DNA from: Candidatus Gottesmanbacteria bacterium RIFCSPHIGHO2_01_FULL_46_14
GTDB lineage: Bacteria; Patescibacteriota; Microgenomatia; UBA10105; UBA927
Direction: 5' to 3'
Assembly: GCA_001780895.1 (NCBI GenBank)
Contig: MFJJ01000010.1
Span: forward strand, 898 to 64,897
DNA length: 64,000 bases
Both the position numbers and the translations under genes were made by a program. Within the stretch, counting starts at the first letter, position 1, and each line of letters opens with the position of its first letter. This document shows positions 6,267 through 35,933 of this stretch, piece after piece. The notes beneath the pieces were generated by a model. That model made no database searches and was not told the DNA's origin. It saw only the letters and a program-made list of their open reading frames with translations.

Positions 6267-6271
6267 TATAT

Positions 6272-6679
6272 ATGGGTTATGAAAATGTGTTGCGCGTGGA
6301 GGGTTTTCTGAAGGATCGTATTGGCTGGTGTAGCGGAAGTGGTTATTCGAGTTTCGGGAGGATGGTTATAGCGTATCGCGACGAAGTACCTCGTGATGAC
6401 GTTTTAACAGGGGAGGAGCTTGAAAAAGCTTGCGCATCTTGTCCAGTGGGGAAAGAGAGAATACCTGGTTTGATTTGCGGTGGGATGAAATATGTCAATC
6501 GGATGCAAAGTCAAATGGTGGCTGAGGTGGATGTTTCAGATAAAGCTCAGTTACCGGAAGGCGCTGAAATATTTTGTGGCTTGGATAACGCGAGGTTACA
6601 ATCGATGAAGGAAGCACCGACCATAGCAGAAGTAGCAGCTCAATATACCGGCGATATGCCTCTCGTGCCGTATAATTGA
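6272..6679 (+). CDS. hypothetical protein
   Basis: 135 aa ORF with no recognisable family. Confidence 0.3.
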   Translation: MGYENVLRVEGFLKDRIGWCSGSGYSSFGRMVIAYRDEVPRDDVLTGEELEKACASCPVGKERIPGLICGGMKYVNRMQSQMVAEVDVSDKAQLPEGAEIFCGLDNARLQSMKEAPTIAEVAAQYTGDMPLVPYN

Positions 6680-6693
6680 TGGAGCGCAAATTG

Positions 6694-6750
6694 CTACCCT
6701 CCTATCCCATACACGACCACCAGCACGCTTCCCACCCAAAGTTCCTTCAG
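6694..6750 (-). pseudogene. duplicated 3'-end fragment of the UbiA-family prenyltransferase gene (encodes ...LWVGSVLVVVYGIGG*)
   Basis: 19 codons ending in TAG. The last 15 aa are identical to the C-terminus of the intact gene at 7384..8322, with about 10 synonymous nt differences. Confidence 0.6.
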
Positions 6751-7112
6751 TTCATCCGACGAAATACGATTTCAAACTCTTTACGAAATCCTTCAAACGT
6801 TATGGTGGCTTTTTGGAAAAGATCCGCTTGTCCGAGGATACAATGGTAGGGCGATATTCCTTCCACGATATTCAATGCGAGGGAAAACGTACTCCCATTT
6901 ATTTCTGCCTCCGCGCGATCAAACCGGTGAGAACGAAATTGTCCGCTTAACGTAAAGCCGATAGATGCCGGAATACTCTCCCATGGTATGCTGAGCGATT
7001 CTGCGATAGTCGTTGAAATCACTGCTCCTGCTGCGCCAGAGTCAACCAATGCAAATGTCGGAAATTCTGTTTGTTGGTGGCGAAATGTCACGGGAACTAT
7101 CGGTGCCAGCAC
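6747..7112 (-). CDS. retropepsin-like aspartic protease (clan AA)
   Basis: LVDSGAAGAVIS active-site motif, hydrophobic-hydrophobic-D-S/T-G-A. Length 121 aa. Confidence 0.55.
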   Translation of the reverse strand: MLAPIVPVTFRHQQTEFPTFALVDSGAAGAVISTTIAESLSIPWESIPASIGFTLSGQFRSHRFDRAEAEINGSTFSLALNIVEGISPYHCILGQADLFQKATITFEGFRKEFEIVFRRMN

Positions 7113-20113: not shown

Positions 20114-21006
20114 CAGCTGAAGAATTTTACTCTCAGTATCTCGTTCTCAAACATTCTCTTCCCCAGTCTGCTACGCATAGTCATAGCAACGAAAACTCAG
20201 AGTATGTAAGTTACAGTTACCGATGCAAGAATTGTTACTATTGCTTTGATTGTGTCGATTGTAGAAACTGTTTGTATTGTTTCGATTGCGTACGCAGTAA
20301 CGATTGTCTAGATGGTGATTATTGCGTTGAGTGCGAGCAACTCTACGAGTCTGTTGATGCATATCGCTGCTACAACAGTGCGTTTCTCAACTACTGTGCA
20401 CGGGTTTATGACAGCTATTTTTGTCGCAATTGTTTTGACAGTCACAATCTTTTCGGATGTGCCGATCTCAAGCAAAAACAATATTGCATTTTTAACAAGC
20501 AATATACAAAAGAAGAATACGAAAAACAGGTTATAGAGTTATTGAAAATCGTACCCAAAGAGCATCTGAAAAAATTGAATGAACTCGCGAGTCAACATCC
20601 TATTGGTCCGACGTACGTCTCGAACTCCGAAAACAGTGACTATGGCAATCAAGTGCACTACTGCACGAGCTGTTATCTTTGTTTCGACACTGCTCGAAGT
20701 AATGACTTAGCATATTCATACGATACGGCATACTGTACAAATTCAATGGATTTGACATACTGCTACAAAGCAGAACTCTGTTACGAGTGTACCGATAGTT
20801 CAAAGATTTATAACTGTGATTTTATCGAGTGGTCGAGCGAGTGCTTTGATAGCGCGTATTTAACCAATTGCAAAGATTGCCATAATTGTTTTGGCTGTGT
20901 AGAAGTTGCGCATAAACGGTTTTGTATTCTCAATAAGCAATATTCGCAAGAAGACTATAAAAAGGTAGTTAGCGAAATTGTGGTTTCTAGACAAGCGGTT
21001 CACTAA
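20110..21006 (+). CDS. Cys-rich tandem-duplicated protein (Cys every third residue: CxxCxxCFDCxxC...), unknown family
   Basis: About 33 Cys in about 298 aa. Two homologous modules of roughly 110 aa, each ending C(I)FNKQY(T/S)xE(E/D)YxK. Start trimmed to ATG 20110 (ORF track begins at 20071). Confidence 0.5.
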   Translation: MTAEEFYSQYLVLKHSLPQSATHSHSNENSEYVSYSYRCKNCYYCFDCVDCRNCLYCFDCVRSNDCLDGDYCVECEQLYESVDAYRCYNSAFLNYCARVYDSYFCRNCFDSHNLFGCADLKQKQYCIFNKQYTKEEYEKQVIELLKIVPKEHLKKLNELASQHPIGPTYVSNSENSDYGNQVHYCTSCYLCFDTARSNDLAYSYDTAYCTNSMDLTYCYKAELCYECTDSSKIYNCDFIEWSSECFDSAYLTNCKDCHNCFGCVEVAHKRFCILNKQYSQEDYKKVVSEIVVSRQAVH

Positions 21007-23173
21007 ATGCTTGTGCTTTTGCCTCAGCGACCGATGGTATGCCAGATTCTTCAAGCAGCCCAATCTCTTTTTCCACTTCAGATCTCGGACGTGCGAATCG
21101 CTCGCGGGACGTTCGCACGATATCGTTTGCAAGATCCTCGTCGGGTTTGGGGAAATTAAGCGTGCGGCCGGAAAACGGTGGAGCGGTTTGCCCATCGATC
21201 GTCATTTTTACGTAGAAATTTCGCATATCTAAATTGAGAAAATCTTTTGGCGAAAAGGTTGGCGTATATTCTTTTTCAAGAACTGCTGCGTCTTCGCCGC
21301 CGACGCGAAATGAAACAATACTTCCGATATTACCAAATATGGTGGAGCGGACTTCTTCCGGCAGTTGCATCATATACTGGTGCGCAACTGTGAGATTCAA
21401 GCGATATTTTCTGGCTTCCGAAAGAATATTCGAGAAAGCGCTTGTGGCGAAATTTTGAAACTCGTCGATATACAAGTAAGTATCTTTTCTGTCCTCTTCT
21501 GCTAAACTTGCCCGAGCAACCGCTGCTTGCCAAAGCTTGGTAATAAACATTGCACCCAGTAGCGCGCTATTTTCCTCGCCCAACTTTCCGATTGCAAAAT
21601 TGGCAATAAGAATTTTTTCGCCGTTTATGATTTCGTCGAGTTTAACAGAACTTTTTGTTTGACCAACAATATTTCTGATAATCGGGTTGGCGACAAATTG
21701 ACCGACTTTATTGATAATCGGCGTAATTGCTTCGCCGGCAAATTGCTCGTTCCACGACGAAAACTCCGTCGTCCAGAATTTTTTTACCAAGGGATCCTGA
21801 ATTTTGGCGATAATTTCCTGTCGATAGCGGATATCAGAAAGCATATTGGTAATGCCCAATACCGTTGCACCGGGAACATCAAGAAGTGCGAGCGTTGTGT
21901 AGCGAAGCACGTGTTCTAATCGTTGATTCCAGGTGAATGAAAATAACTTCTTAAATATTGCGATAAATCCAGCAACGACAGTTTGCTTAAACTCATACGT
22001 CCCTACTCCTTCGAGCGGATTGAAACTCATGGGGTAGTCAATATCAGAAGGATTAAAATACACAACGTCGTAGAGTCTCTCTCTGGGAATATAGCGAAGC
22101 ATTTCTTCGGAAAGATCGCCGTGCGGGTCCATGATGACGCAGCCTTTTCCCTGTCGAATATCAGCAAGAGCGAGAAGTTGGATGAGTTTACTTTTTCCGA
22201 CCCCAGTTTTTCCGATGATGTAGAGATGTTTTCTTCGATCTTCTCGCTTAATACCAAACTCCGTCGAAACTCCCCGAAAATTGGTGGTGGCAAAAGGAAT
22301 AATTGCGGGTTTGGTGGGCAAATTTATCGGCGGCTCGGCGGTTTTCGATTTGGCTACTGATACTTGCGCGATACCGGAGGAGGCTAGGGGCAAGTGATAC
22401 ATCGTTGCCAGTTCATCTCCTCCCAAAAGAAATGGTTTTGGCGAGGCGGTACGCTGCCGGAACGCATCGACTGCGCGGGGATTACTGCCACGCTTCCAGA
22501 TTTTGAGTGAGTTGAGATTTGGGTTATCGAGGATTTTAAAGAGTGCAGAAACTGATGAGGCGAGCAGTTCCGATTTTGTATCCGCGCTTGCCGCAATGCG
22601 AATTGTTGTCGAAAACAGCGATTTGTGCAATTTTTCTGTCTCCTTTTCCTGAAGTAGTTCCCGCATGGAAGAATTTTTCCTCATGCTTTGTCTCCATGAA
22701 GTGCGAAGCATTTCGCGAAATTTGAATGAAAGTGACTCATTGTTTACCGGGCTTACGATGACTTGAATGCCAATGAGGTCATTGCCGGAAATACTTGATG
22801 CCATTCCGGATAAAGCGGACAGAAAATCAGTTTCGAGTTCCTTATACGTTTTGATGGGATAGGCATCCGGCCGTTCTAATTTTAGGATTATCACGTGTGA
22901 CGAAAGAGAGAGCGAGCCGGTGTAGTCGGTAACCTCAACGATTTCGAGCGTTGGATACTGGGAAAATAACTGTCCGCGGACGATATCGACGTTGCTTCGT
23001 TCGGTGACGACAAAAAAATACAAGAATCCGCCGCGCACCACAATCTCAAATGAGAGTGTGGCGGGGTGATGGCGAAAAAGTTCGGAAAGCCCTGTAAATA
23101 TGGCCTCCGCTGCCACCGGCCCCCGGTCATTTTCCCTGGGGACTTTAAGATGCAGGACAACAGGCGCGTTCAT
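20987..23173 (-). CDS. TraD/VirD4/HerA-FtsK superfamily P-loop ATPase with about 300-aa N-terminal domain
   Basis: Walker A IIGKTGVGKSKL, then the CVIMDPHGDL motif typical of coupling-protein/DUF87-like ATPases, then a Walker B-like LYIDEFQNF. 728 aa. Confidence 0.5.
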   Translation of the reverse strand: MNAPVVLHLKVPRENDRGPVAAEAIFTGLSELFRHHPATLSFEIVVRGGFLYFFVVTERSNVDIVRGQLFSQYPTLEIVEVTDYTGSLSLSSHVIILKLERPDAYPIKTYKELETDFLSALSGMASSISGNDLIGIQVIVSPVNNESLSFKFREMLRTSWRQSMRKNSSMRELLQEKETEKLHKSLFSTTIRIAASADTKSELLASSVSALFKILDNPNLNSLKIWKRGSNPRAVDAFRQRTASPKPFLLGGDELATMYHLPLASSGIAQVSVAKSKTAEPPINLPTKPAIIPFATTNFRGVSTEFGIKREDRRKHLYIIGKTGVGKSKLIQLLALADIRQGKGCVIMDPHGDLSEEMLRYIPRERLYDVVYFNPSDIDYPMSFNPLEGVGTYEFKQTVVAGFIAIFKKLFSFTWNQRLEHVLRYTTLALLDVPGATVLGITNMLSDIRYRQEIIAKIQDPLVKKFWTTEFSSWNEQFAGEAITPIINKVGQFVANPIIRNIVGQTKSSVKLDEIINGEKILIANFAIGKLGEENSALLGAMFITKLWQAAVARASLAEEDRKDTYLYIDEFQNFATSAFSNILSEARKYRLNLTVAHQYMMQLPEEVRSTIFGNIGSIVSFRVGGEDAAVLEKEYTPTFSPKDFLNLDMRNFYVKMTIDGQTAPPFSGRTLNFPKPDEDLANDIVRTSRERFARPRSEVEKEIGLLEESGIPSVAEAKAQAFSEPLV

Positions 23174-23219
23174 GAGCGTATTGTATCAGAACGCACTCAC
23201 ACGATGCTATAATTGCGCT

Positions 23220-23792
23220 ATGAAAAATATGCTTATTCTTCATGGTATTGGGGGAAGCTTTGGACTCAATTGGTATCAATATATCGCCAGAGAAGCTGAA
23301 GCTAATGGCTATAAGGTGTACGTCCCGCAATTACCATCCACAGATAGGCCGAATCTTAACGTCACGTACGAATTCTTACAAAAGACATCTTCTTTTGACA
23401 AGGAGACAATTCTTATTGGTCACTCATCTGGTGCTAGTTTGTCACTGGGGATTTTACAGTTGCTCCCCAAGGATATTGTAATTAAGCGTACGATTTTGGT
23501 AGCTGGATTTATTGACCCCAATCTTACACCCGAGCTTCACAAATATATTCCCCGGTCCGACTATGCTCATTTGTTTCCTAAAATGTGGGATTGGGACAAA
23601 ATTCGAAAATCTTCAAAAGATTTTATTATTTTTTATTCCCCTCAAGATCCGTTTATTCAGTCACGACATGCCGAGACTCTTGAAAAGAATCTTAATGGCA
23701 AACTAATCCTAGTTTCAGACGCGCTTCATTTTAGTGTTGCATCGGGTGGAGAACGATTTAGAGAGTTTCCAGAACTTCTGAAGTACATCTAA
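23220..23792 (+). CDS. RBBP9/YdeN-like serine hydrolase (alpha/beta fold)
   Basis: ILHGIGGS...W start, GHSSGA nucleophile elbow, about 190 aa. Start trimmed to MKNMLILHG. Confidence 0.55.
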   Translation: MKNMLILHGIGGSFGLNWYQYIAREAEANGYKVYVPQLPSTDRPNLNVTYEFLQKTSSFDKETILIGHSSGASLSLGILQLLPKDIVIKRTILVAGFIDPNLTPELHKYIPRSDYAHLFPKMWDWDKIRKSSKDFIIFYSPQDPFIQSRHAETLEKNLNGKLILVSDALHFSVASGGERFREFPELLKYI

Positions 23793-25027
23793 TTTTTCCG
23801 GTAAATTTTTCCCGAAGACACTTCGTTAACTTCTTTGTAATTATTGTTGATGTAGGTTTGTATTTGAATGAGGTTTCGGAAATTTGAGGGGATGGGTTGG
23901 GGAATCACAATAATTTCTATATGTTCAGATTCCAGGCGATTGATGATTTGTTGTTCATAATCCGGAAAAAATTGCTGGAAGATTTGAAAGTGAATAGGAA
24001 AATAGGTCGGCGGGAGTTGGTCGCGAATCATATAGAGTTCGTAAAATTCACCGAAGACATAGAATTTTTTGTCAAGATAATATGCGACATTTGCGAGTGT
24101 TGCAACTCTTTTCGATTGATCCCGTTCTTTAGCAAGAACGCTATAGCGATAATTTATTTGTCTCGTGAGTGCGATAGATAATAGCAGGAGTCCTAAACCT
24201 ACGAATAGTTTGTATCTGCGTGATGCTGATGTAAATACCAATCCGATGAAGAGAACAAAAAAAGTCGCCATTGGTACGAGGTGTTCTTTACCATAGGTAA
24301 GACGCAGGAATACCAAAGAGACCAGCATAAACGTAAACGGCAAGATGCTTTTTGTGGCACGAGATCGAATTGCCGTATAGAGACTCAACAAAAGTACTCC
24401 TGACGCAGTCACGAGTATACGCTTATCCCCTATCGGAAGGCCTTCGTAGTATTTAAAAAGAAACTGATTAAACATAAATAAATCTGATATAAGAGGCGAT
24501 AGTCCTCCGATTATCCAATACGTTATACATACAACAACCCACATGAAGCCGGTGACCAGAACCGGAACGAGACTTTTTTTGTATATACCAATGGGCAGCA
24601 GAATGAGTACGGCAGTTGGTTTGATGAACGACGCTAGCCCTACAAGGAATCCAATCAAAACTGGGGATGATTTTTGTGTGAGCGCTCTATAGGTTAGTAG
24701 GTAAAATACGGTGATAACGCCTTCGTACCAAAAGTAATTTTCTGATACAAAGACAGATACGAGTACGAAAAAGACTGTCATGAGGTGGTTACGCAAAATT
24801 TTGTATACGAGAATGGTACTCAGAAGCTGGGTAAGTATGTAGAACGTATTTCCAGCAATGATGGTAAGCGCATAGGAGAGAAGAAACCCATGATTATCAA
24901 AAAAATCCCGATACGGTACCAACCCTTTGGAGACAAGCCAGGGCAGAAACGAGAGTTCAGGCCAGATGTGAATAGGCAGAGATAATAAAAAAGTGAGATG
25001 AACTAAAATAATTATCAGAAGAACCAT
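23789..25027 (-). CDS. polytopic membrane protein, putative GT-C-like glycosyltransferase
   Basis: At least 10 TM helices. Start trimmed to MVLLIII (25027) so it does not overlap the divergent helicase gene. Confidence 0.35.
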   Translation of the reverse strand: MVLLIIILVHLTFLLSLPIHIWPELSFLPWLVSKGLVPYRDFFDNHGFLLSYALTIIAGNTFYILTQLLSTILVYKILRNHLMTVFFVLVSVFVSENYFWYEGVITVFYLLTYRALTQKSSPVLIGFLVGLASFIKPTAVLILLPIGIYKKSLVPVLVTGFMWVVVCITYWIIGGLSPLISDLFMFNQFLFKYYEGLPIGDKRILVTASGVLLLSLYTAIRSRATKSILPFTFMLVSLVFLRLTYGKEHLVPMATFFVLFIGLVFTSASRRYKLFVGLGLLLLSIALTRQINYRYSVLAKERDQSKRVATLANVAYYLDKKFYVFGEFYELYMIRDQLPPTYFPIHFQIFQQFFPDYEQQIINRLESEHIEIIVIPQPIPSNFRNLIQIQTYINNNYKEVNEVSSGKIYRKN

Positions 25028-25056
25028 TTTTCTGTTGGGAGTATAATGACCGAACC

Positions 25057-27942
25057 GTGAAAAAGACTTCCGAAGAGCGTATATTAAACCAGGAGCAAAG
25101 ACAAGCCGTTGAACATGGCGATGGACCGTTGTTGATTGTCGCAGGTGCCGGAACAGGAAAGACAACAGTTGTAACTGAACGCATCAAGCATCTTATTACA
25201 TCTGGAAAAGCTAATCCTCAAGAGATTTTAGGTCTCACGTTTACGGAAAAGGCTGCCCGCGAAATGGAAGAGCGGGTAGACATTGCTCTTCCGTATGGCA
25301 CAACGCAAATGTGGATCTCCACGTTTCACTCATTTTGCGATCGGATTCTTAAAAATGAATCGATTAATATTGGCCTTGATCCGGGATTTACGCTCATGAC
25401 CGAAGCCGAGACGATTATTTTTTTCCGTAAGAATCTCTTCAAATTTGACCTCAAATACTTCCGTCCGCTGGGAAATCCTACCAAGTTTATTGCAGGGATG
25501 ATACAGCATTTTTCAAGACTCAAGGATGAAGATATTAATCCCAAGCAGTATCTAGAATGGGCTAAGACCCAAGTTGGAGAAGAAGGAGAAAGATATCAGG
25601 AATTGGCCGATGCTTATCGATCCTATGAAGAAGTCAAAGTAAAAGAAGGGGTTGCTGATTACTCAGATCTTATTAGTAATACGTTAAAAATATTCAGACT
25701 TCGGAAAAATATTCTCAAACGGTATCAAGAGCAATTTAAATACATTCTGATCGACGAGTTTCAGGATACGAATTTTGCGCAAAATGAACTCGCTATTCTT
25801 CTTGCGGGTCAGCGGAAAAACATTACCGTCGTCGGAGATGATGATCAGGCAATTTATCGTTGGCGTGGGGCGGCGATAAGTAACATTATTCAGTTCAGGA
25901 GTCATTTTCATAAAACGGCAATCGTCGTGCTTACGAAAAATTACCGTTCCACAAAAGAAATACTTGACCGATCGTATGCCCTCATTCAATTGAACAATCC
26001 TGATCGATTGGAAGTGGTTGAAAAGATAGATAAAAAATTGGAAAGCATGAGGAGAACAAACGGGCAACCCATAGAGGTTTTATATGAACAACGGGTCGAG
26101 AACGAAGCCGATGAAGTGGCAAAATCTATTCAGAATTTGAAACTCGAAATGAAAAACGAGTGGAAAAATTATGCGATTTTAGTCAGAGCCAATGTCCATG
26201 CAGAGCCATTTGTCAGAGCGCTTTCGCGACTGGGAATTCCGTATCAATTTTTAGGTCCGGGTCAACTGTTTCGACAGCCGGAAGTAAAAGATCTCATTGC
26301 CTATCTTAACGTCCTTGCTAACTATGAAGACAATGTTGCTATGTATCGGGTGTTGACGATGGATGATATCGGAATTAGTGATCGTGACGTCGCGGTACTT
26401 ATTAATTACGCAAAGAAATTCGGAACATCACTTTTTGAAGCGTGTGAGCAGCTCTCAAGGTCCAGCCACTCTCAAGGCTCGGCCTTAAAGTACCCCAAGG
26501 CCGAGCCTTTTATGGGGCTTGCAAATCTGGTAGCAATGATTACTCGGCACCTGGGACGTATCAAAAAAGAGACGGCCGGACAAATTCTGTATTATTTCCT
26601 CCAAGATACCGGACTGTTACAAAAACTTGGAACGTATAAAACGCCAAGAGACGAGAGGATTGCGACCAATATTGCCAAGTTTTTCAATAAACTTAAAACC
26701 TATGAAGCGGAACACGACGACGCAAGTGTGTATGCGGTTGTTGACTGGATCGATATGGCCATGAAGTTAGGTGAGTCGCCGCTAGCGACCGATACGGATT
26801 GGTCCGGCAATAATGCAGTCAACATTCTCACGATTCACTCATCCAAGGGACTTGAATTTTCCGTTGTGTATCTGGTTAATCTCGTGTCTCAGAGATTTCC
26901 GACGACCCAGCGACGGGAGCAAATTCCGATCCCAGATGCACTTGTCAAAGAGATTTTGCCAAGTGGAGATTTTCATACAGAAGAAGAACGGCGACTTTTT
27001 TATGTAGGGATGACGCGCGCTCGTGATCATTTATTTTTCACTGCGGCTAAATACTATGGCGAAGGCAAGCGGGAGAAAAAGATTTCACCCTTCGTCATTG
27101 ACGCATTAGGAGAATTACCAAGCGTAAAGATACCAAGTGAACAAAAACAACTCACGCTCCTGGATTGGGAGAAGAAAGAAGAGTCAGCAGTTTCAATAGT
27201 CAGGCAACCAATTGATTATGTCTCCTATTCGCAGCTTGATACTTTTAAAACCTGTCCGCTCCAGTATAAGTATCGCTATATTCTTAAAATTCCGGTGCCA
27301 CCGTCAGCCGCTCTTACGTTTGGCGACAGCATGCATCGGACGATGCGCGCATTTTATGAGCTTGTGCAACAGGGAAATGTCCCTACAAAGGATACACTCC
27401 TTCGACTTCTCGACGATCATTGGATTTCATTGGGATATGGGCAGCGTTCGTACGAAGAAAAAATGAAAGTGCACGGGAGGGAATTACTTGCAGAATTTTT
27501 TGAGAAAGGATATGAACCGGGGAAAATTCCAAAGAGTCTAGAGGAGCCATTCAGGATAAAAATTACACCGTTTCTTAAGCTCGGCGGGAAAATCGATCGC
27601 GTTGATGAACTGCCCGACGGAACTATTGAGATTATTGATTACAAAACCGGCCAAGCACCGAAAAACCGCGATGTGAGGGCAGATTCGCAATTAACTGCAT
27701 ACGCACTCGCTGCGACAGACGAGGGAATATACAATAAATCTCCCGAACACGTTATTGTTTCGTTTTACTTTTTTGAAGGACAGGAAAAAATTTTTGCTTC
27801 GCGAACCCGTGCGCAATTGGCAGAGGCGATACAACATATTACCAAAACTGCTGACGAAATCTCGCGAAGTGACTTTAAGCCGACTCCCGGAAAGCATTGT
27901 GATTTTTGTGAGTTTCGCCTCATCTGTGAGGCGTGGCAGTAA
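25057..27942 (+). CDS. UvrD/PcrA-family helicase fused to a C-terminal PD-(D/E)xK nuclease domain with a Cys cluster (AddA/Cas4-like)
   Basis: GTG start. Helicase motifs AGAGTGKT, DEFQDTN, VGDDDQAIYRWRGA and the KNYRST motif. C-terminus has YSQL...C...IDRVDEL...IIDYKTG...CDFCEF..C. Confidence 0.75.
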   Translation: MKKTSEERILNQEQRQAVEHGDGPLLIVAGAGTGKTTVVTERIKHLITSGKANPQEILGLTFTEKAAREMEERVDIALPYGTTQMWISTFHSFCDRILKNESINIGLDPGFTLMTEAETIIFFRKNLFKFDLKYFRPLGNPTKFIAGMIQHFSRLKDEDINPKQYLEWAKTQVGEEGERYQELADAYRSYEEVKVKEGVADYSDLISNTLKIFRLRKNILKRYQEQFKYILIDEFQDTNFAQNELAILLAGQRKNITVVGDDDQAIYRWRGAAISNIIQFRSHFHKTAIVVLTKNYRSTKEILDRSYALIQLNNPDRLEVVEKIDKKLESMRRTNGQPIEVLYEQRVENEADEVAKSIQNLKLEMKNEWKNYAILVRANVHAEPFVRALSRLGIPYQFLGPGQLFRQPEVKDLIAYLNVLANYEDNVAMYRVLTMDDIGISDRDVAVLINYAKKFGTSLFEACEQLSRSSHSQGSALKYPKAEPFMGLANLVAMITRHLGRIKKETAGQILYYFLQDTGLLQKLGTYKTPRDERIATNIAKFFNKLKTYEAEHDDASVYAVVDWIDMAMKLGESPLATDTDWSGNNAVNILTIHSSKGLEFSVVYLVNLVSQRFPTTQRREQIPIPDALVKEILPSGDFHTEEERRLFYVGMTRARDHLFFTAAKYYGEGKREKKISPFVIDALGELPSVKIPSEQKQLTLLDWEKKEESAVSIVRQPIDYVSYSQLDTFKTCPLQYKYRYILKIPVPPSAALTFGDSMHRTMRAFYELVQQGNVPTKDTLLRLLDDHWISLGYGQRSYEEKMKVHGRELLAEFFEKGYEPGKIPKSLEEPFRIKITPFLKLGGKIDRVDELPDGTIEIIDYKTGQAPKNRDVRADSQLTAYALAATDEGIYNKSPEHVIVSFYFFEGQEKIFASRTRAQLAEAIQHITKTADEISRSDFKPTPGKHCDFCEFRLICEAWQ

Positions 27943-27946
27943 TTGG

Positions 27947-28210
27947 ATGTATAATATACCCATGAGTGATAATAATCGGCCATATTTTTTGTGGGATTAT
28001 GATTTGACCGAAGAGGATATTCGGAGGATTTTGCGTGGGGAAAACCGTACGGATAGAATTTGGATTCTATCGCGGATTCTGGAAAGCGCACGGTTTGAAG
28101 ATGTATGGCGATATACGACGCTTTCCGAAGTACGAGAAATGTTTCCCGTATTAAAACTCAAGCAACCCATCCGACAGGCTTGGGAACACGCGTTACACGT
28201 ATGGCAATAA
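27947..28210 (+). CDS. hypothetical small protein, possible partner of the AbiEii-family gene
   Basis: 88 aa. Its stop overlaps the start of the next gene by 10 nt. Confidence 0.3.
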   Translation: MYNIPMSDNNRPYFLWDYDLTEEDIRRILRGENRTDRIWILSRILESARFEDVWRYTTLSEVREMFPVLKLKQPIRQAWEHALHVWQ

Positions 28211-28863
28211 ATTATCATTTACAAGATCAATTTTTAGACAAGTTTTTCATGAGCCAGTTCGGGCCGGATTTTTATTTGACCGGCGGGACAGCGCTTGCGC
28301 GATTTTACTTTCACCATCGAGAAAGCATTGACCTGGATTTGTTTACCCAGAATAAAAACACAGACTTTGCTGTATTGAATTTGTTCGTGGAAAAAATCGG
28401 TTTAGCGATAGGACTCAAGACGGTCAAACAGGTGGTTACAAATGCGTTTTTGCAGTATATCTTTGAAGATATTTCCGGTGAAGGCCTGAAGGTAGATATT
28501 GTCAAAGACATTCCGGTGCATTTCGGAGAGTTTAAGCAGGAAGGTATGATAAGGGTAGACTCTCTAGAAAATATCGGAACTAATAAAGTATTAGCTATTT
28601 TTGGAAGGACAGATCACAAAGATTTCATTGATTTGTACTATATCCTTCACCAAACACAATTAACTTTTGATTACCTCGTTTCACTTGCTAAACAAAAAGA
28701 CGTGGGGCTTACGGAGTTTTATCTTGCCAACTCCATCGATCAGCTTCAAACCGCTACCCAGATGCCAGCACTCCTCAGGCCATTAGATGTTGACGTATAC
28801 AAAGCATTTTATAAGCAGATATCAGAAAAGATGCTCTCGAAGCTTAAACCGGAGGACACGTGA
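28201..28863 (+). CDS. AbiEii/DUF1814 family nucleotidyltransferase (abortive-infection / type IV TA toxin family)
   Basis: FYLTGGTALARFYFHHRESIDLDLF N-terminal signature. About 220 aa. Confidence 0.5.
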   Translation: MAINYHLQDQFLDKFFMSQFGPDFYLTGGTALARFYFHHRESIDLDLFTQNKNTDFAVLNLFVEKIGLAIGLKTVKQVVTNAFLQYIFEDISGEGLKVDIVKDIPVHFGEFKQEGMIRVDSLENIGTNKVLAIFGRTDHKDFIDLYYILHQTQLTFDYLVSLAKQKDVGLTEFYLANSIDQLQTATQMPALLRPLDVDVYKAFYKQISEKMLSKLKPEDT

Positions 28864-28884
28864 TTTTTCTGGTAGGATAGATTT

Positions 28885-30045
28885 ATGGATCAATCGTCAC
28901 CTCTTCAACCACAGAATGCAGCTCAAGTTCGACCGGTGAATCCAAAAAGGTCGTTGAGACAATTATGGTGGATGGTTGGAGGATTTGTGGTGTTGTGTGT
29001 TGGATTTGTTTCCGGATTCGTGGCCGGAAAAACATTGTACGCACCAAAGTCGACTCTATCTCCAGCGCCCATTGCGTATTCCTCTCCTTTTCCTACCCCC
29101 GATCCGACGACGGGGTGGAAGACATTTTTGAACGGAAATTACAAATATGAATTTAAGTATCCCCAAGATTGGCCAGATATCCCTCTCATTGCTTCCAACC
29201 AAAAGGATGGTTTTCAATTTGCTGGGCAGACCGTATATGCATCTCGAAATTTTCCTAAAGTGCAGCCTCCGCAATTACAGATTGAGGTTTTTAAGAGTGA
29301 AAGAGAATTATCTTCTGATGAGCTTGAGGAGAAAGAGAGTTGTGGATCTCCAGTCTTTACTATCTCCAAAAGGACAGTTGGGGGAGTACCTGCGATAATT
29401 GGAAAGAGATTGGCTTCTCGGGATCCAGGAGCGCCATACTATACTGGACTCCATTACTGCGTACGTGCATATCAAAGCGGGTTTATTTATAGCTTATTGT
29501 GGGAAGAAGGCTCTGATAAAGATAGTGGCGTATTTGATAAAATATTGGGGACGTTTCGGTTTCTCGATACAGTTGTCCCGAGTTCTGTTCCGAATGTAAA
29601 AAATATAAAAGTTTTGAAATATAATCTCCAGTCGGATTGGAAAACAGTACAAGATAAAACTGGGGCGCTTGAAGTAGGATATGATCCGTCGATATCAAAA
29701 GTCAGCGAGCCGGCCGTCGAGAATTCTATAAGTATTTATAAAACGAATAGAATTCTCGGAAGTTTTATGACCGTGAGACTCTTGCCATACGACGGAGGTT
29801 CTCGACATGAGTTTTTATATGTGCAGATTGGTGAAAAACCGGTGAAAGAGGATTTACTCCCCTCATATCATGAACAGGAGTATACATATACTGGTAGATC
29901 GTGTTTATTTCTTATCGGTATAACCATTTCACAATTTCCCACCACGTGGGGGATGTGCGATGCGGGAGGAGGCAAGGCCTTTTTGATTACTTCATACGAT
30001 GATGGCGATTTTGAAAAGACGGCTCAGACAATACGGTTGTTGTAG
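28885..30045 (+). CDS. hypothetical membrane-anchored extracellular protein
   Basis: N-terminal TM helix followed by WKTFLNGNYKYEFKYPQDWP. It is a paralogue of the module in 31099..31752. Confidence 0.35.
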   Translation: MDQSSPLQPQNAAQVRPVNPKRSLRQLWWMVGGFVVLCVGFVSGFVAGKTLYAPKSTLSPAPIAYSSPFPTPDPTTGWKTFLNGNYKYEFKYPQDWPDIPLIASNQKDGFQFAGQTVYASRNFPKVQPPQLQIEVFKSERELSSDELEEKESCGSPVFTISKRTVGGVPAIIGKRLASRDPGAPYYTGLHYCVRAYQSGFIYSLLWEEGSDKDSGVFDKILGTFRFLDTVVPSSVPNVKNIKVLKYNLQSDWKTVQDKTGALEVGYDPSISKVSEPAVENSISIYKTNRILGSFMTVRLLPYDGGSRHEFLYVQIGEKPVKEDLLPSYHEQEYTYTGRSCLFLIGITISQFPTTWGMCDAGGGKAFLITSYDDGDFEKTAQTIRLL

Positions 30046-30083
30046 CAAGAAAACGAAGACTGTTTGCCTTACTTGACCACTGT

Positions 30084-31076
30084 TTGTTTCAGAAGTTTTC
30101 TTTAAACTTCGTAACCCCCTCCGTTCATGAAATTGAGCATGCGACCATTCCGTCTCAGTATACATGGTGGCTTAGTGGGGAAGCTATTTGGGGATTGACA
30201 GAAGTATTTTTATGTGTGTTTAATAAAGTAAATACAGATAGTATGCCGCAATATCTCATCCACCCCAAACACCCTTTGCGTATCTTTGTCTACATTGTTC
30301 TTGTTCTCGGATTTGTTGTAGGCGGATTTTTTACATTTAAAGCCTCTCAAATGTCTACAGAGAGTCGTTCCAAGGCAGCATTGGAATATAAGACCTATGT
30401 AAATTGGGAATTTAATGGAACGGACCCAGAGGGTTGGGTTGGTGAGAATCTCACGAATATAAAAGTTGGCGGCGGGGTTCTAAAGGGTATTGTGGGAGGA
30501 GCAAAGACTTATCCCAAGTTGACACATAAAAAGGTAGCACTCGACCAGGGGAATAAAATGTTTGAGATTTCCATAGCGGTAGCTCCTGCAGTAAAGCCGG
30601 AAAGAGGCCCTACTCCCGCAGTAGAACCATATAAACTTAATGTGATATATGCGGTATCAACTGACGGATTAAAAAGGAAACAATTAGTGATGAAGGGTAG
30701 GCCCAATGGTAAACTTAATAATTTAAAAGCTAAATTTCCTGAAATTGGAAAGTTGAACATTGACAATCTTCAGTTGGAATTTGTGAATGTAAAAAGTGAT
30801 TCTATTATCACAATAGAATCAATAAAGGTAACAGACATAGTAGGAACGAAACCAAGTCCAACACCCACCCCACTGCCTGGTTTAGTAAATTGTGAATCGC
30901 TTTACAAAGAGAAATCATCTTATTTCAAAGGTTGTTCAGATAATGGGTATGCACAGGTCTGTTTTAATCAGTTCACGACAGAATATCAAGGATGTAATAA
31001 GGCAGGCGAAAATACTTGTACACAAAATAATGTTAATGCCGCCAGTAATATTCTTTGTGACTCGTCTCCAATGTAG
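30084..31076 (+). CDS. hypothetical membrane-anchored protein with Cys-rich C-terminus
   Basis: ORF-track frame. The probable start is an internal Met near 30243, just before the TM helix. Confidence 0.3.
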   Translation: MFQKFSLNFVTPSVHEIEHATIPSQYTWWLSGEAIWGLTEVFLCVFNKVNTDSMPQYLIHPKHPLRIFVYIVLVLGFVVGGFFTFKASQMSTESRSKAALEYKTYVNWEFNGTDPEGWVGENLTNIKVGGGVLKGIVGGAKTYPKLTHKKVALDQGNKMFEISIAVAPAVKPERGPTPAVEPYKLNVIYAVSTDGLKRKQLVMKGRPNGKLNNLKAKFPEIGKLNIDNLQLEFVNVKSDSIITIESIKVTDIVGTKPSPTPTPLPGLVNCESLYKEKSSYFKGCSDNGYAQVCFNQFTTEYQGCNKAGENTCTQNNVNAASNILCDSSPM

Positions 31077-31098
31077 CCTGGAGTGAATAATTGAATCA

Positions 31099-31752
31099 GT
31101 GGATACAGTAATGCCTGTTCAGCCGCCGCCGATGGTACCGCCTCAAAAATCTTCTTCCCACCCTGCTCTTTTTATCGCTGGTACTACCTTGCTCGCTATA
31201 GCCATCAGTTACTTGGGCTACCAAAATTGGCAACTCAAACAGCAAGTCAATCGGTTAGACAAACTTGTCCAAGTCGACAACACCCCTCTGTCTTCACCTA
31301 CCGATTCATCCGACCCCACCGCGAGCCAGGCTCCGAATGGTGACCTGGCCAACTGGAAAACATATACAAATAATGATCTGAGAGTAAACTTCAAACATCC
31401 CAGCGGTTGGGTGATAACTGAAACTAGCATCGGAGTTGTTTTATTGAAAGATCCTGACATACGCATGGTAATTGGAGCTTGTCCGGGATACTCATTTTCC
31501 GTTTCAAAATATGATCCGTATTTAAACTATTCACGATTCGATAAGGTGGTTAAATCAGAACTCGATGGCAAATCTACCGAAACTTGGACAAGTAACGACT
31601 CAAAGTGTAAAGAAAAGGTTATCTTTATTAACGCTTTACCCTCCAATGACCTAAAACCCAAATATATAATTTCATTTATATCTAAAAATTCTGACGGCGA
31701 TAAAATTCTTGACCACATCCTCTCCACCTTCAAGTTTACGGCAAATGAGTAG
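31099..31752 (+). CDS. hypothetical membrane-anchored extracellular protein
   Basis: TM helix followed by WKTYTNNDLRVNFKHPSGW, a paralogue of the 28885 gene product. Confidence 0.35.
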   Translation: MDTVMPVQPPPMVPPQKSSSHPALFIAGTTLLAIAISYLGYQNWQLKQQVNRLDKLVQVDNTPLSSPTDSSDPTASQAPNGDLANWKTYTNNDLRVNFKHPSGWVITETSIGVVLLKDPDIRMVIGACPGYSFSVSKYDPYLNYSRFDKVVKSELDGKSTETWTSNDSKCKEKVIFINALPSNDLKPKYIISFISKNSDGDKILDHILSTFKFTANE

Positions 31753-31771
31753 GGTAATCGAGTTCTTCTTC

Positions 31772-32149
31772 ATGGTATACTACCCCCGTATGGGTATAAC
31801 AACAATTTCAGCAACTATTACAAGCCTCGAGAATCCGAAAAATAAAGTCAGCGGAAAGTTTATGGTGGATACTGGTGCAGCATATACAGTGCTTCCACAG
31901 GCGCTTGTTGACAAACTACACCTGAAGCCGGTCAAAACGCAAGAATTTACCTTGGCAGACGGCACAACCGTTGCCCGAAGACTTGGTCATGCAATGGTTG
32001 AGATTGATGGCGACAGAGCTCCGTCTATAGTCGTACTTGGAGAAAGAGATGATTCACCTCTTATCGGAGTAGTGACGCTTGAAAATATGGGACTTATGGT
32101 TGATCCCTTTAAAAGGAAACTTCGCCCCATGAGACTCATGTTGGCCTAA
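31772..32149 (+). CDS. retropepsin-like aspartic protease (second copy)
   Basis: FMVDTGAAYTVL active-site motif. ATG at 31772 or 31790. The ORF-track upstream extension overlaps the previous gene. Confidence 0.5.
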   Translation: MVYYPRMGITTISATITSLENPKNKVSGKFMVDTGAAYTVLPQALVDKLHLKPVKTQEFTLADGTTVARRLGHAMVEIDGDRAPSIVVLGERDDSPLIGVVTLENMGLMVDPFKRKLRPMRLMLA

Positions 32150-32157
32150 ATGGTACG

Positions 32158-32958
32158 TTACCCAGCAACAGGGTAATACCGTGGTGTTCCTCCAAATCCT
32201 TCTTTAAATTTCGTAAACCCTTTCCATTCATGGAACTGTTTAGGGTTTCGTTCATCCCAGACGCCGACAAAGTCAAACTGTTTCATTCCCCGTTTTTTTG
32301 ATAGTTTCAATGCCTCCCAAACGAGAAGAGTCGGAGTGAATAATTTTTTTCCTTGGTGGGTGGCTCCTGCGATCCAATAATAGGAGGTATCCTCCCAAAA
32401 AATGAGAAGTACACCACCATGTTGTGCAAGAAGAATACTTGCATGTTTCTGGGAAAATATTGACCAGAGATCTATTATTCCATAGGTAGTAATACTGCCA
32501 AAAAGCCCGGCTGATTTAGATTTAATTGCAATAAGTTCGTTGATGTTTGCAGATTCTCTTACAATCACCCCATGTTTTTCTGCCCGACGAACAGCCCGTC
32601 GTTTTGCTTCGGAAAATCTGTTAAATATTTCATCTTCGGTAGCTGTTAGATCAACAAGAATAGTTTTTGTCGGCAAAAATGGATTTCCGCCAACGGACGG
32701 AATTTTTTTCCTCCACTCGTCAAACGCCGTCTGGGAAACAACCGCGTCCGGTTCAACGGTAATCCGGCGGATTCGTTTTTCGCGCAATAGTTTATTGAGA
32801 GTATCGGGAGATGGAAGTCTGGTTGGCCGCTGTAGTTTTGCCAATGCCCCATATATGGGAAAGTAGCGGAAGATAATTGTCGATCCGTCTATCTCACTCG
32901 TGTGCCAGCCGAGTTTTTCGATATATGAAATATACAGTGATGATTGTTGCAGCTCCAT
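32158..32958 (-). CDS. FemAB family peptidoglycan peptidyl/aminoacyl transferase
   Basis: 266 aa with the FemAB C-terminal block (HEWKGFTKFKEGFGG). Tandem with a paralogue. Confidence 0.55.
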   Translation of the reverse strand: MELQQSSLYISYIEKLGWHTSEIDGSTIIFRYFPIYGALAKLQRPTRLPSPDTLNKLLREKRIRRITVEPDAVVSQTAFDEWRKKIPSVGGNPFLPTKTILVDLTATEDEIFNRFSEAKRRAVRRAEKHGVIVRESANINELIAIKSKSAGLFGSITTYGIIDLWSIFSQKHASILLAQHGGVLLIFWEDTSYYWIAGATHQGKKLFTPTLLVWEALKLSKKRGMKQFDFVGVWDERNPKQFHEWKGFTKFKEGFGGTPRYYPVAG

Positions 32959-33846
32959 TTATCGCAGCATTTTCAAATATTTCCATCGAATCGTATCGGC
33001 GACCGTATAGATTTTGTAGAGAGCGGGTTTAAGGATGAGGTCATAGGATCCGACAAATTCAATCAAATTTGGATTGAAACCTTGTTTAAATCGATGAAAT
33101 CCATACCAAGGATCATTGGGATCGGGGTCGGGACCGAGTGCACCCCATAGATCAAATTTTTTATATCCTTCCGATTTTCCCCATCGGGCTATTTCCCAAA
33201 GCATAAGGTTTGGCGCCATGACTTCCCGATGATCTCTTGATGAGGCACCATAGGGGTAATACATCGTATCCTTCCAGCAAAAAATAATCCACGAGGCAAG
33301 AATTTGATTTCTATACGTGGCCGTAAACAGTCGGGCGATATCGGGATGAAAATGTTGCCACATTTGCCGGTAATACAAATCGTTGTGCGCATAAAAGTGC
33401 TGGCGTTTAAGCGTTTCATTATTTAAACGCAGAAATGGTCCAAGATTTTCTTCTTCGTTGATCGTTACTTTGTGTTTTTGGGCGACGCGAATGTTGTAGC
33501 GCGTTTTGGGGTGCATGGCTTTTAGTAGTTCTTCTTCAGACTTTGTGAGATCTAAGACAAATGTGTATCTGGAAAACAACGGATGGTGGGAGTGTGGTAG
33601 CAGCTGATCGCCAGAAGTGACATTGGGTTCGATTTGAATACAGAGTGCATTTTTTTCGTTCCCCAATGCTTTTAGTTTTTCTATCATCTCTTTTGTTACG
33701 CTTGGTCCTTTGGGAAAATAGCCGATGGTCCATGGAGTGAGAGGAATTTTGTGGAATGTCAGTTGCCAGTTGCCAATGCGGGCCACGTCGATGCCCATGG
33801 AGCGACGAAATGCTCCCCATGCCGGTGATTGAAGTGGGTGTTGCAT
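32959..33846 (-). CDS. FemAB family peptidoglycan peptidyl/aminoacyl transferase (paralogue)
   Basis: 295 aa with the matching C-terminal block (YGFHRFKQGFNPNL) and a GNAT-like fold pattern. Confidence 0.55.
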   Translation of the reverse strand: MQHPLQSPAWGAFRRSMGIDVARIGNWQLTFHKIPLTPWTIGYFPKGPSVTKEMIEKLKALGNEKNALCIQIEPNVTSGDQLLPHSHHPLFSRYTFVLDLTKSEEELLKAMHPKTRYNIRVAQKHKVTINEEENLGPFLRLNNETLKRQHFYAHNDLYYRQMWQHFHPDIARLFTATYRNQILASWIIFCWKDTMYYPYGASSRDHREVMAPNLMLWEIARWGKSEGYKKFDLWGALGPDPDPNDPWYGFHRFKQGFNPNLIEFVGSYDLILKPALYKIYTVADTIRWKYLKMLR

Positions 33847-34073: not shown

Positions 34074-35933
34074 CTAAATGAGCATATCATCGGTATTAAA
34101 TCCGCGATCACTATCGAGGGAAACCTGAAAGTTAAGCGCGTGTTGGGGAATATCAGAGATAAACCGTGATATCATATTTTGTGTCCTTGTCCCAAAGAAA
34201 AGTCGTCTGTTTGCATAGGTGAAGTAGAGCTTTTCTTTTGCTCTGGTGATCCCGACGTAGCACAAACGTCGTTCCTCTTCCAATTCGTCACGTTCCAAAA
34301 GCACGCGGCTGTGTGGAAACAATCCTTCTTCCATTCCAACCATAAAGACGATCGGGAACTCTAATCCTTTTGCTGCATGTAAGGTCATGAGGGTTACGGC
34401 ATTTCTATCGTTGTTACGATGTTGTCGGGGTTGATACTCCCGCTCAACCAGTGCTACGGTTTCTAAGAATTCCTGGAGTTTTGAAAATTCCGTTGCCACA
34501 GATCGAAGTTCTTTAATGTTTTCAAGTCGTGATTGCTCTTCTTCAATGTTGGCGTCGTAAAGCTCAAGATAGCGGGTTGTTTGGAGAATCTGATCAAGAA
34601 GTTCTAGTGTGGTCAGCTCAATAAGTTTGTCATCTTTGGATACGGCATCAGCAAACCCCAAAAATTTTTCCAGTCTCCGTATCCCAAGTTTTTCCACCCG
34701 CCTGTAGGAAACGGTATCTTTGGGATTGGCAATCAAACGGAGATAGGCCAAGACATCCTTGATTTCTTTTCGTTCATAAAATCGGGTGCCGCCAACAAGT
34801 ACATACGGGATACCGGCGTGAAGAAACGTTTCCTCGAGTACTCGCGATTGGGCATTGGTACGGTACAAGATTGCACTATCAGTGAACGGGCGGTTGAATT
34901 GCAAGATCGTCTGAATGAGAAACGTCGCTTCATCGTGTTCGTTTCGTGCTTCGTAGAGAACGATTTGGTCACCGCCGTGTTTATCCGTCCATAATTTGAG
35001 AATTGGGTGAGACGTATTTTTAGAAATGACGCCAAATGCCGCATCAAGAATAGTTTGAGTGGACCGATAGTTTTGTTCTAAGTGAAAAACCTCTACATCA
35101 GGATGGTCTGTTTTGAAATTAACAATATTTCGGTAATCAGCCCCCCGCCAGCGATAAATGCTTTGCGATGCGTCACCCACGACACAAATATTTCGGTGTC
35201 TGGCAGATAAGAGCTTTGTCAACATGTATTGGGCGCGATTGGTGTCCTGGTATTCGTCAACGAGTACATAGCGATACTTTTCTTGATATTTGCCTAATAT
35301 TTGGGGTTCTTTTTCGAACAGTCGAACGGTGAGGCTCAAAAGATCATCAAAGTCAACAGCGGCATTGTCCCGGAGAAGTTGTTGATAAGCCATGTAGACG
35401 GTCGCCACCGTTTTCTGGAAATACCCGCGGGCGTACTGGGGGTATTGGGTGGCCCCAACAAGTTCATTTTTCGCCTGAGATATGGTATGGAGGATGGCGC
35501 CTGGATTGAAGTTTTTTGTCGAAATATCAAGTTTTTTCATGACGTCTTTAATGGCATCGGCTTGATCTTGTTCATCGTAAATGACGAAATTTGGTGCGAG
35601 CCCGATGGCGCCACCATCTGAGCGGAGGATCTTTACGCAAAGAGAATGGAATGTGCCGGCAAAGGGGAGTGAGGAGGTGTCCCCCAGTATTTTTTGTATT
35701 CTCTCCTTCATCGCACCCGCGGCTTTATTGGTAAACGTTACCATGAGAATATCGTCTGGCGATACGTGTTTGTGATTCATGAGATAGGCGACTTTGTAGG
35801 TAAGGACGCGGGTTTTACCGCTCCCGGCTCCGGCAAGAATGAGGATCGGGCCATCAGTTTGTTTGACCGCCTCTTGTTGGGCAGCATTGAGCTCATTGAG
35901 GAGAGAATCGACCATAACATATAATACTAGCAC
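34074..35933 (-). CDS. ATP-dependent DNA helicase, UvrD/PcrA family (short)
   Basis: AGAGSGKTRVL, DEYQDTN and GDASQSIYRWRGA motifs. 619 aa. The start may be MVDSLL at 35915. Confidence 0.75.
   Translation of the reverse strand: MLVLYVMVDSLLNELNAAQQEAVKQTDGPILILAGAGSGKTRVLTYKVAYLMNHKHVSPDDILMVTFTNKAAGAMKERIQKILGDTSSLPFAGTFHSLCVKILRSDGGAIGLAPNFVIYDEQDQADAIKDVMKKLDISTKNFNPGAILHTISQAKNELVGATQYPQYARGYFQKTVATVYMAYQQLLRDNAAVDFDDLLSLTVRLFEKEPQILGKYQEKYRYVLVDEYQDTNRAQYMLTKLLSARHRNICVVGDASQSIYRWRGADYRNIVNFKTDHPDVEVFHLEQNYRSTQTILDAAFGVISKNTSHPILKLWTDKHGGDQIVLYEARNEHDEATFLIQTILQFNRPFTDSAILYRTNAQSRVLEETFLHAGIPYVLVGGTRFYERKEIKDVLAYLRLIANPKDTVSYRRVEKLGIRRLEKFLGFADAVSKDDKLIELTTLELLDQILQTTRYLELYDANIEEEQSRLENIKELRSVATEFSKLQEFLETVALVEREYQPRQHRNNDRNAVTLMTLHAAKGLEFPIVFMVGMEEGLFPHSRVLLERDELEEERRLCYVGITRAKEKLYFTYANRRLFFGTRTQNMISRFISDIPQHALNFQVSLDSDRGFNTDDMLI

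Follow-up and report, generated by a model that had tools for sequence, protein, structure and literature searches.

The window analysed here is a 64,000-nt stretch of contig MFJJ01000010.1 from Candidatus Gottesmanbacteria bacterium RIFCSPHIGHO2_01_FULL_46_14, in which three genes follow one another on the forward strand between positions 25057 and 28863. They code for a helicase-nuclease, a small protein and an AbiEii-type nucleotidyltransferase (NTase), in that order. We propose that the latter two genes (27947-28863) probably constitute a self-contained, horizontally mobile module of the toxin-antitoxin (TA) type, consisting of a DUF1814 NTase toxin and its cognate neutralising partner, and that the helicase-nuclease is a neighbour outside this module. 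The proposal rests on the anatomy of the genes, the family membership of the toxin, the conservation and mobility of the pair, and the existence of domain fusions. The toxin is of a known type, and so is the diversity of antitoxins for DUF1814 toxins; what is new is a conserved, undescribed partner family, with 466 sequence clusters in at least seven phyla.

A conserved pair of overlapping genes

The small gene spans positions 27947-28210 (+) and starts 4 nt after the helicase stop codon. It encodes 87 residues from its ATG, not 88 as given in an earlier note on this DNA; an alternative ATG at 27962 would yield an 82-residue protein, nearer to the 81-82 residues of most homologues. That note also described the end of the small open reading frame (ORF) as overlapping the start of the NTase gene (28201-28863, +; 220 residues), which is indeed the case: the ATG of the latter, at 28201, falls 10 nt inside the small ORF, whose TAA stop codon is at 28208-28210. 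The shared segment on the + strand, ATGGCAATAA (28201-28210), was read from the sequence, and an overlap of this kind implies that translation of the two genes is probably coupled.

We scanned loci encoding the small protein, with one genome per species, using the narrower alignment A4 because the diverse alignment A3 was too variable. This yielded 56 loci, a set in which A4 favours members having the PxFLWDY[DN]L motif, distributed over at least seven phyla (Microgenomates, Chloroflexota, Planctomycetota, Omnitrophota, Deltaproteobacteria, Elusimicrobia and Armatimonadetes). Among the 55 scorable loci, 51 have a gene for an AbiEii relative directly downstream in the same orientation. It is intact in 41 cases, cut by a contig end in 4 and frameshifted or fragmentary in 6; no such gene follows in 4 of the 55 loci. 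Where the start of the downstream gene could be placed (48 loci), the two genes overlap by 8-28 nt (usually 8-14 nt) in 37 loci and are separated by 0-22 nt in the remainder. A reverse look-up starting from more distant AbiEii homologues found a small-family gene upstream in both cases inspected (2/2). The earlier note suggested a possible variant pairing, and the small ORF is strictly linked with AbiEii across phyla. The real unit is a two-gene pair, not a three-gene system.

The relatives of all three genes of the window belong to Patescibacteria of the Microgenomates group (Amesbacteria, Gottesmanbacteria and Woesebacteria). One locus of the scan (L028) is labelled Nanoarchaeia. Many TPA_asm records (L013, L015, L020 and others) are titled 'uncultured Gammaproteobacteria bacterium' and have a gene content typical of Patescibacteria, L020 being the same contig as L007; these labels on metagenome-assembled genomes look wrong.

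Two contigs in public records, L071 and L073, match window positions 23063-33318 and 23809-31036, respectively, with 100% identity. In their annotations the small ORF is omitted and AbiEii is called as a 252-residue protein (L071, 5043-5801; L073, 4297-5055) from the ATG corresponding to window position 28105, and hence the partner gene is invisible in them. We rejected this longer ORF because AbiEii homologues are 214-227 residues long and begin at a conserved MA(V/I)NY.

The nucleotidyltransferase

The 220-residue protein matches PF08843 with 63.5 bits for a cut-off of 22.5 (E = 3.6e-17), in agreement with its initial AbiEii/DUF1814 assignment, and is also matched by the PADLOC AbiEii models. 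PF08843 is present in 120 of 120 AbiEii homologues among the matches listed. Public records already list the protein as AbiEii, and it is of a known kind.

Its NTase motifs are TGGTAL (residues 27-32), RESIDLD (40-46) and KVDIV (97-101), with key residues invariant or at least 90% conserved. The catalytic segment from TGGTAL to R40-E41-S42-I43-D44-L45-D46 (28279-28338, +) contains the metal-binding DxD; S42 is invariant, and D44 and D46 are invariant in alignment A2 and at least 90% conserved in alignment A7. Ser42 is located two residues before the first catalytic Asp, in the same register as T39 of MenT1 (T39-R40-D41) and S78 of MenT3. The C-terminal DUF1814 motif NKVLAIFGRTDHKDFIDLY (residues 128-146; 28582-28638, +), which harbours the catalytic Lys and Asp residues, aligns with the same motif of JHP933, and N128, K129, R136, K140, D141 and D144 are invariant in 48 AbiEii homologues.

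A profile search matched the protein to JHP933 (4o8s/4ok0) with an E-value of 1e-6. Its AlphaFold2 model (predicted local distance difference test score, pLDDT, of 92.4) shows a confident and complete DUF1814 fold, for which Foldseek retrieved JHP933 (E = 7.6e-9, template-modelling score 0.61-0.65), MenT4 (E = 4.4e-5) and MenT1 (E = 1.1e-3). Judging from these motifs and folds, the protein is a DUF1814 (AbiEii/MenT-family) NTase with a predicted complete active site.

The small partner protein

Close homologues of the small protein number 113, with 79 to 109 residues and 49-100% identity; none of them carries a Pfam domain or an informative name. Twelve residues are invariant in the family, including RPYFLWDY, and the invariant motif RPYFLWDYDL is coded by positions 27977-28006. 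A profile run against 1.84 billion representative proteins collected the 466 clusters of the family (50% identity, E ≤ 1e-3), all of them unnamed. AlphaFold2 used with the family alignment predicts a confident five-helix domain (pLDDT 90.2, predicted template-modelling score 0.78).

Searches of the small protein against Pfam, NCBIfam and PADLOC gave no match above cut-off, a phmmer search against the PDB yielded nothing meaningful, and PDB-based fold searches found no solved structure resembling it. It matches AbiEi neither in sequence nor in fold, and the comparison with MenA1 gave no homology.

In the standard antitoxin design, a domain that binds DNA is linked to one that binds the toxin. 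Longer relatives of the small protein (approximately 140-170 residues), mostly from bacteria other than Patescibacteria, harbour the small domain C-terminal to an N-terminal extension with the consensus LKTVRFSPEE...NP.F.SFSSLAR.AV. This extension has weak matches of the ribbon-helix-helix (RHH) type, to DUF6290 in 5 of 14 members and to CopG_antitoxin in one (E = 4e-7), and its profile searched against the PDB returned the RHH protein NikA alone, with an E-value of 1. The RHH assignment of the long forms is drawn from the weak Pfam matches and the one clear CopG_antitoxin member. Other members of the family carry HTH_3, MarR-type or GntR-type domains. There are also natural fusions in which the small domain is N-terminal to AbiEii, namely P0128 (339 residues), P0189 (311 residues) and at least two more, approximately 4 of 150 representatives. 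By comparison with these architectures, the window protein appears to be a minimal form, a putative neutralising domain devoid of a DNA-binding domain, like MenA1. As it has no DNA-binding domain, no autoregulation is expected.

In two very large proteins, P0232 (1315 residues) and P0258 (1300 residues), the small domain is found at the extreme C-terminus; the rest of P0232 shows only a weak AAA_16/ATPase_2 match near residue 207.

Genomic contexts, mobility and decay of the pair

The pair occupies several distinct sites. It is inserted in the spc operon between rplO, accompanied by an SNase or NUDIX gene, and secY (L007/L008, 6001-6899; L009, 6001-6896; L010, 6001-6899), beside rpsO-pnp (L011, 3351-4254; L069, 2755-3651), between rplJL and rplKA (L070, 2755-3654), and behind a helicase gene in the window and in L001. 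Given how conserved this operon is, the insertion at the rplO-secY junction is unusual. Tandem or convergent arrays of divergent pairs are found within single loci (L016, L019, L026, L034 and L036), including pairs at 4067-4976 and 5001-5887 of L019, at 1476-2469 of L016 and at 5934-6835(-) of L026. In multi-pair loci we also observed a third subfamily, with a partner of approximately 65 residues starting with MHLWDYREKDL, and in L038 a further AbiEii seems to come after an AbiEi-like C-terminal fragment.

The toxin gene is frameshifted or truncated in L005 (L005/L006, truncated), L039 and L067, and the small gene is an orphan, with no toxin gene, in L003/L004, L037 and L062. We considered that an uncalled AbiEii might be hidden in the 690-bp gap of L003/L004, and rejected this as there is no ORF or hidden Markov model match there. 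Broken toxins and orphan small genes are the decay pattern expected of a TA pair, and altogether the tight coupling, mobility, formation of paralogues and toxin-first decay are hallmarks of TA modules.

The GC content of the window pair (0.407) is not distinct from that of its neighbours (0.414-0.435), and a repeat search found nothing flanking the pair that resembles an insertion scar. In related genomes, other TA genes lie no more than a few kb from the pair, including RHH-PIN genes (L001, 115-761) and a Phd/YefM antitoxin gene (L009, 10725-11033). Near the pair of L005, a HicA toxin gene with an unannotated upstream gene is present at 4478-4931.

Proposed function and alternative readings

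Based on family membership and by analogy with MenT1, MenT3, MenT4 and the AbiEii of Streptococcus agalactiae, the NTase would add nucleotides to the 3' ends of tRNAs and thereby stop translation. The translationally coupled small protein would neutralise the toxin by binding it directly, through occlusion and/or through induced auto-phosphorylation of Ser42, the latter being possible in addition to binding. We infer binding and neutralisation from gene coupling, from the fusions and from precedent; the fusions of the small domain to AbiEii hint at a physical interaction. Expression of the window pair would follow the upstream helicase transcript, with no autoregulation. Toxicity, the antitoxin role, binding and phosphorylation, as well as any role in phage defence, are proposed on these grounds.

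Several considerations weigh against this reading. The toxicity of the short, 220-residue AbiEii subfamily is presumed from family membership, the role of the small family is read from sequences and models, and binding is deduced only from gene coupling and from fusions, some of which could be gene-calling artefacts. Neither a tblastn search of the small protein against phage and plasmid collections nor a scan of viral contigs gave a match. There is also a possible link to another family, DUF6922 (PF21956), which the small protein matches with 11.3 bits for a cut-off of 27 (E = 0.25). Among 58 close members of the small family, 20 had a sub-threshold DUF6922 match, as did 10 of 145 distant ones; the best E-value was 1.7e-5. 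An hhalign comparison of the small family with a bona fide DUF6922 alignment gave P-values of 0.014 and 0.0039, in both cases over the same stretch of 46-47 columns, which is suggestive, not significant. Both families have an N-terminal aromatic LW motif followed by helices. A true DUF6922 gene (34.3 bits, cut-off 27) lies directly upstream of a second AbiEii gene in L019, and a DUF6922-like ORF directly upstream of another AbiEii gene in L016. The link is statistically weak, and the small family is at best a remote relative of DUF6922, which is plausible but unproven; our literature search returned no papers on DUF6922.

The repeated location of the pair in ribosomal and translation operons of reduced genomes could also mean that it has acquired a domesticated, non-toxic function. 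In ultra-small Patescibacteria, the NTase might be a tailing or repair enzyme acting on the 3' ends of tRNA or other RNA, with the small protein as its regulatory subunit, and be expressed together with ribosomal genes. Its recurrence in translation loci (rplO-secY of the spc operon, rpsO-pnp and rplJL/rplKA), its maintenance in strongly reduced genomes and the short form of the partner, lacking a DNA-binding domain for autoregulation, all fit such a factor. However, the pair is patchily distributed, related genomes carry it at different positions, some loci have frameshifted or truncated toxin genes or orphan small genes, and the multi-pair arrays described above are typical of TA paralogues. 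Moreover, the family in other phyla has the classic antitoxin architecture of DNA-binding and neutralising domains. We therefore regard domestication as unlikely.

The small ORF might also be a split-off N-terminal domain or a specificity subunit, needed for NTase activity or for the choice of substrate rather than an inhibitor. The single-chain versions (P0128, P0189 and the two others) and the tight gene overlap are compatible with this idea, but such fusions are rare, at approximately 4 in 150 representatives, and AbiEii alone covers PF08843 from model position 2 and has the complete DUF1814 fold. The persistence of orphan small genes after loss of the toxin, and fusions to DNA-binding domains that suit antitoxins but not catalytic subunits, make an activating subunit very unlikely.

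A toxin with a neutralising partner is thus the reading that we favour. It can be extended, in a form that we consider speculative and rather improbable: the RPYFLWDY five-helix domain would be a third, phylum-spanning class of protein partners of DUF1814 toxins, with a fold unlike those of AbiEi and MenA1 and a neutralisation mode of its own. Its minimal form in Patescibacteria would be wired into ribosomal and translation operons (in the window, behind a repair helicase), such that a tRNA-tailing toxin would be expressed in step with the translation machinery instead of being autoregulated.

The helicase-nuclease is a neighbour of the pair

The helicase-nuclease gene (25057-27942, +; GTG start) encodes a 961-residue protein. 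The earlier note had described it as a helicase with a C-terminal Cas4/AddB-like nuclease domain containing a four-Cys cluster, and its Pfam domains, motifs and cysteines confirm this description. The domains are UvrD-helicase (E = 3.1e-79), UvrD_C (E = 1.6e-55) and PDDEXK_1 (residues 722-958, E = 4.2e-41). Its motor motifs are intact (Walker A GAGTGKT, residues 30-36; DEFQD, 233-237), and its nuclease motifs are of the RecB type (GKIDRVD, 844-850; IIDYKTG, 859-865; QLTAYA, 878-883). The nuclease domain has just four Cys residues, C733, C948, C951 and C957, which form a C...CxxCx5C cluster of the Cas4/AddB type. The NCBIfam cas4 and addB models match the nuclease region, both below cut-off, and the protein scores far below the cut-offs of all NCBIfam equivalogs (score/cut-off: PcrA 462/911, Rep 410/951, AddA 180/708, RecB 151/696).

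As previously noted, no AddB partner is encoded nearby, and no AddB/RecC/RecD-like protein was found among the 28 neighbouring genes scanned. The claim that this is the only nuclease-helicase of the window calls for an amendment: a second UvrD/PcrA-type helicase of 619 residues, without a nuclease domain, is encoded 6 kb downstream (34074-35933, -). Its gene adjoins two FemAB genes and LytR, an arrangement that is kept in L005/L006. The orthologous helicase-nuclease gene is split in L001 (1373-4481; 980 residues plus a 73-residue ORF holding the last Cys cluster) and in L072 (2681-5366, 99.7% identical to the window; 597 plus 308 residues). These splits reflect either assembly indels or a genuine disruption of the nuclease end.

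The helicase gene is flanked by genes for a Ser-hydrolase and a domain-less membrane protein, and by the small ORF. With a 4-nt gap and no terminator-like site between them, the helicase gene and the pair are probably co-transcribed. This raises the possibility of a three-gene anti-phage unit in a defence island, in which, for instance, foreign DNA would be sensed or degraded by the helicase-nuclease, with the NTase as effector. L001 shares the order Ser-hydrolase - helicase - small protein - AbiEii. In the window and L001, helicases that are 71% identical are followed at the same site by divergent versions of the pair. In L005/L006, the pair is located 1.5 kb downstream of the orthologous helicase, with a HicAB pair and a peptidase gene in between. 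The PADLOC GajB and DRT-helicase models, in addition, match the helicase.

The linkage of the helicase with AbiEii is nevertheless not conserved, as a helicase-nuclease is encoded within 5 kb of the pair in just 1 of the 56 species-level loci (L043, the same contig as L001), and the pair occurs in at least four unrelated contexts. Wherever the helicase is nearby (window, L001 and L005/L006), it is part of a conserved backbone, RmuC ... Ser-hydrolase - helicase ... FemAB-FemAB-UvrD-LytR, and it keeps this housekeeping synteny with or without an adjacent pair. Between the window and L001, the helicases are 71% and the Ser-hydrolases 69% identical, compared with 53% for the small proteins and 40% for AbiEii, while the window pair shares 64-70% (small protein) and 67% (AbiEii) identity with pairs from ribosomal operons of other genomes. 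The helicases being more alike than their pairs, and the window pair being closer to ribosomal-operon pairs, the pair must have been exchanged independently of the helicase. The PADLOC matches of the helicase correspond to generic UvrD (GajB-type) similarity. There was no PADLOC match to GajA in the six genes scanned, from which the Ser-hydrolase and membrane protein genes were left out, and no reverse transcriptase match among the genes scanned.

The defence-island context suggested by the earlier note is not supported either: the neighbours are housekeeping genes, including those for MetRS, TatD, RmuC, glycosyltransferases, FemAB and LytR, and PADLOC, run on six genes, found only generic UvrD. 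The three-gene system is largely refuted by the distribution of the genes, and we deem it highly improbable. The helicase-nuclease appears to be a chromosomal DNA-repair-type gene, behind which the pair merely sits. The stretch downstream of it looks like a small, variable TA hotspot in this lineage.

Genomic setting

The 28 surrounding genes scanned encode MetRS, TatD, glycosyltransferases, RmuC, an AAA_33 kinase, a Trp-repressor-like protein, a VirD4/HerA-like ATPase, the Ser-hydrolase, hypothetical proteins, an aspartyl protease, two FemAB proteins, the second UvrD helicase and LytR. The surroundings of the pair are chromosome backbone of the housekeeping kind, not a defence island. A scan for promoters and terminators around the genes detected nothing above chance.

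Within this otherwise housekeeping stretch, the 728-residue ATPase (20987-23173, -) has weak matches of the TrwB/VirD4, HerA/DUF87 and TraG-D_C types and a PADLOC mad8 match (E = 1.4e-13). Directly 3' of AbiEii, three consecutive genes (28885-31752, +) code for proteins of 386, 330 and 217 residues with no Pfam match, of which the first has a hydrophobic N-terminal segment. Two of the three were scanned with PADLOC and gave no match. They are followed by a gene for a retropepsin-like aspartyl protease (31709-32149).

Implications

DUF1814 toxins (AbiEii, MenT) are widespread effectors of growth arrest and phage defence, and their control by unrelated antitoxins is under active study. As the partner matches none of the PADLOC AbiEi models, current finders of defence or TA systems would not call such pairs AbiE. 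AbiE-type systems are therefore probably under-counted, especially in the ultra-small bacteria of groundwater. A small, confidently folded domain with natural RHH, HTH and toxin fusions represents a tractable test case, and this family could show whether antitoxin-induced auto-phosphorylation is general for DUF1814 toxins. Our analysis also removes a false lead by placing the helicase-nuclease outside the system.

Comparison with known systems

Like AddAB, AdnAB, RecBCD and Cas4, the helicase-nuclease of the window combines features of a UvrD-type superfamily 1 motor, a RecB-family PD-(D/E)xK nuclease and the four cysteines of the AddB/Cas4 type. Unlike AddAB, AdnAB and RecBCD, it is a single-chain protein with an intact motor and an iron-sulphur-type nuclease, and no partner subunit was found nearby.

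JHP933 of Helicobacter pylori (PDB 4o8s/4ok0) is, of the solved structures, the one nearest to the window NTase in both fold and sequence. The two proteins are similar in length and have the RFSEDLD and K..KD..DL motifs in common, although their identity is only approximately 20%.

AbiE (AbiEi-AbiEii) of Streptococcus agalactiae and Lactococcus is a type IV TA and abortive infection system, recently proposed to be of type VII. The window pair shares with it a PF08843/DUF1814 toxin with the same catalytic motifs, a bicistronic operon in which the partner gene is upstream and overlapping, and a Ser that precedes the DxD by two residues, a position at which auto-phosphorylation induced by the antitoxin has been reported. 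Such auto-phosphorylation is now reported for the S. agalactiae AbiEii (bioRxiv 10.64898/2026.01.19.700257). The window partner, however, has 87 residues instead of the approximately 200-300 of AbiEi, and neither the winged helix-turn-helix nor the COG5340 C-terminal domain of the latter. No AbiEi (COG5340) gene is present upstream of the window toxin: the small gene has no Pfam, NCBIfam or PADLOC match, and the helicase gene ends 4 nt further upstream. The window toxin, at 220 residues, is also shorter, and any phage-defence role of the window pair is putative. Our literature search on AbiE in Patescibacteria returned nothing describing the small partner.

The antitoxin MenA1 (68 residues, no DNA-binding domain) illustrates that DUF1814 toxins have unrelated antitoxins (PMC10435456). 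It neutralises its toxin by direct binding and induced auto-phosphorylation of the [ST]xD residue (PMC10435456, PMC11375011), and both MenT1 (T39) and MenT3 (S78) are auto-phosphorylated upon binding of their unrelated antitoxins (PMC11375011). Foldseek retrieved MenT1 for the window toxin; the two toxins are only ~14% identical. Whereas MenA1 is a V-shaped peptide of two helices, the small protein of the window is predicted to form a compact five-helix domain. Both MenAT1 of Mycobacterium tuberculosis (Rv0078B/Rv0078A) and the window pair combine a short DUF1814 toxin with a very small antitoxin, putative in the latter case, that is devoid of a DNA-binding domain.

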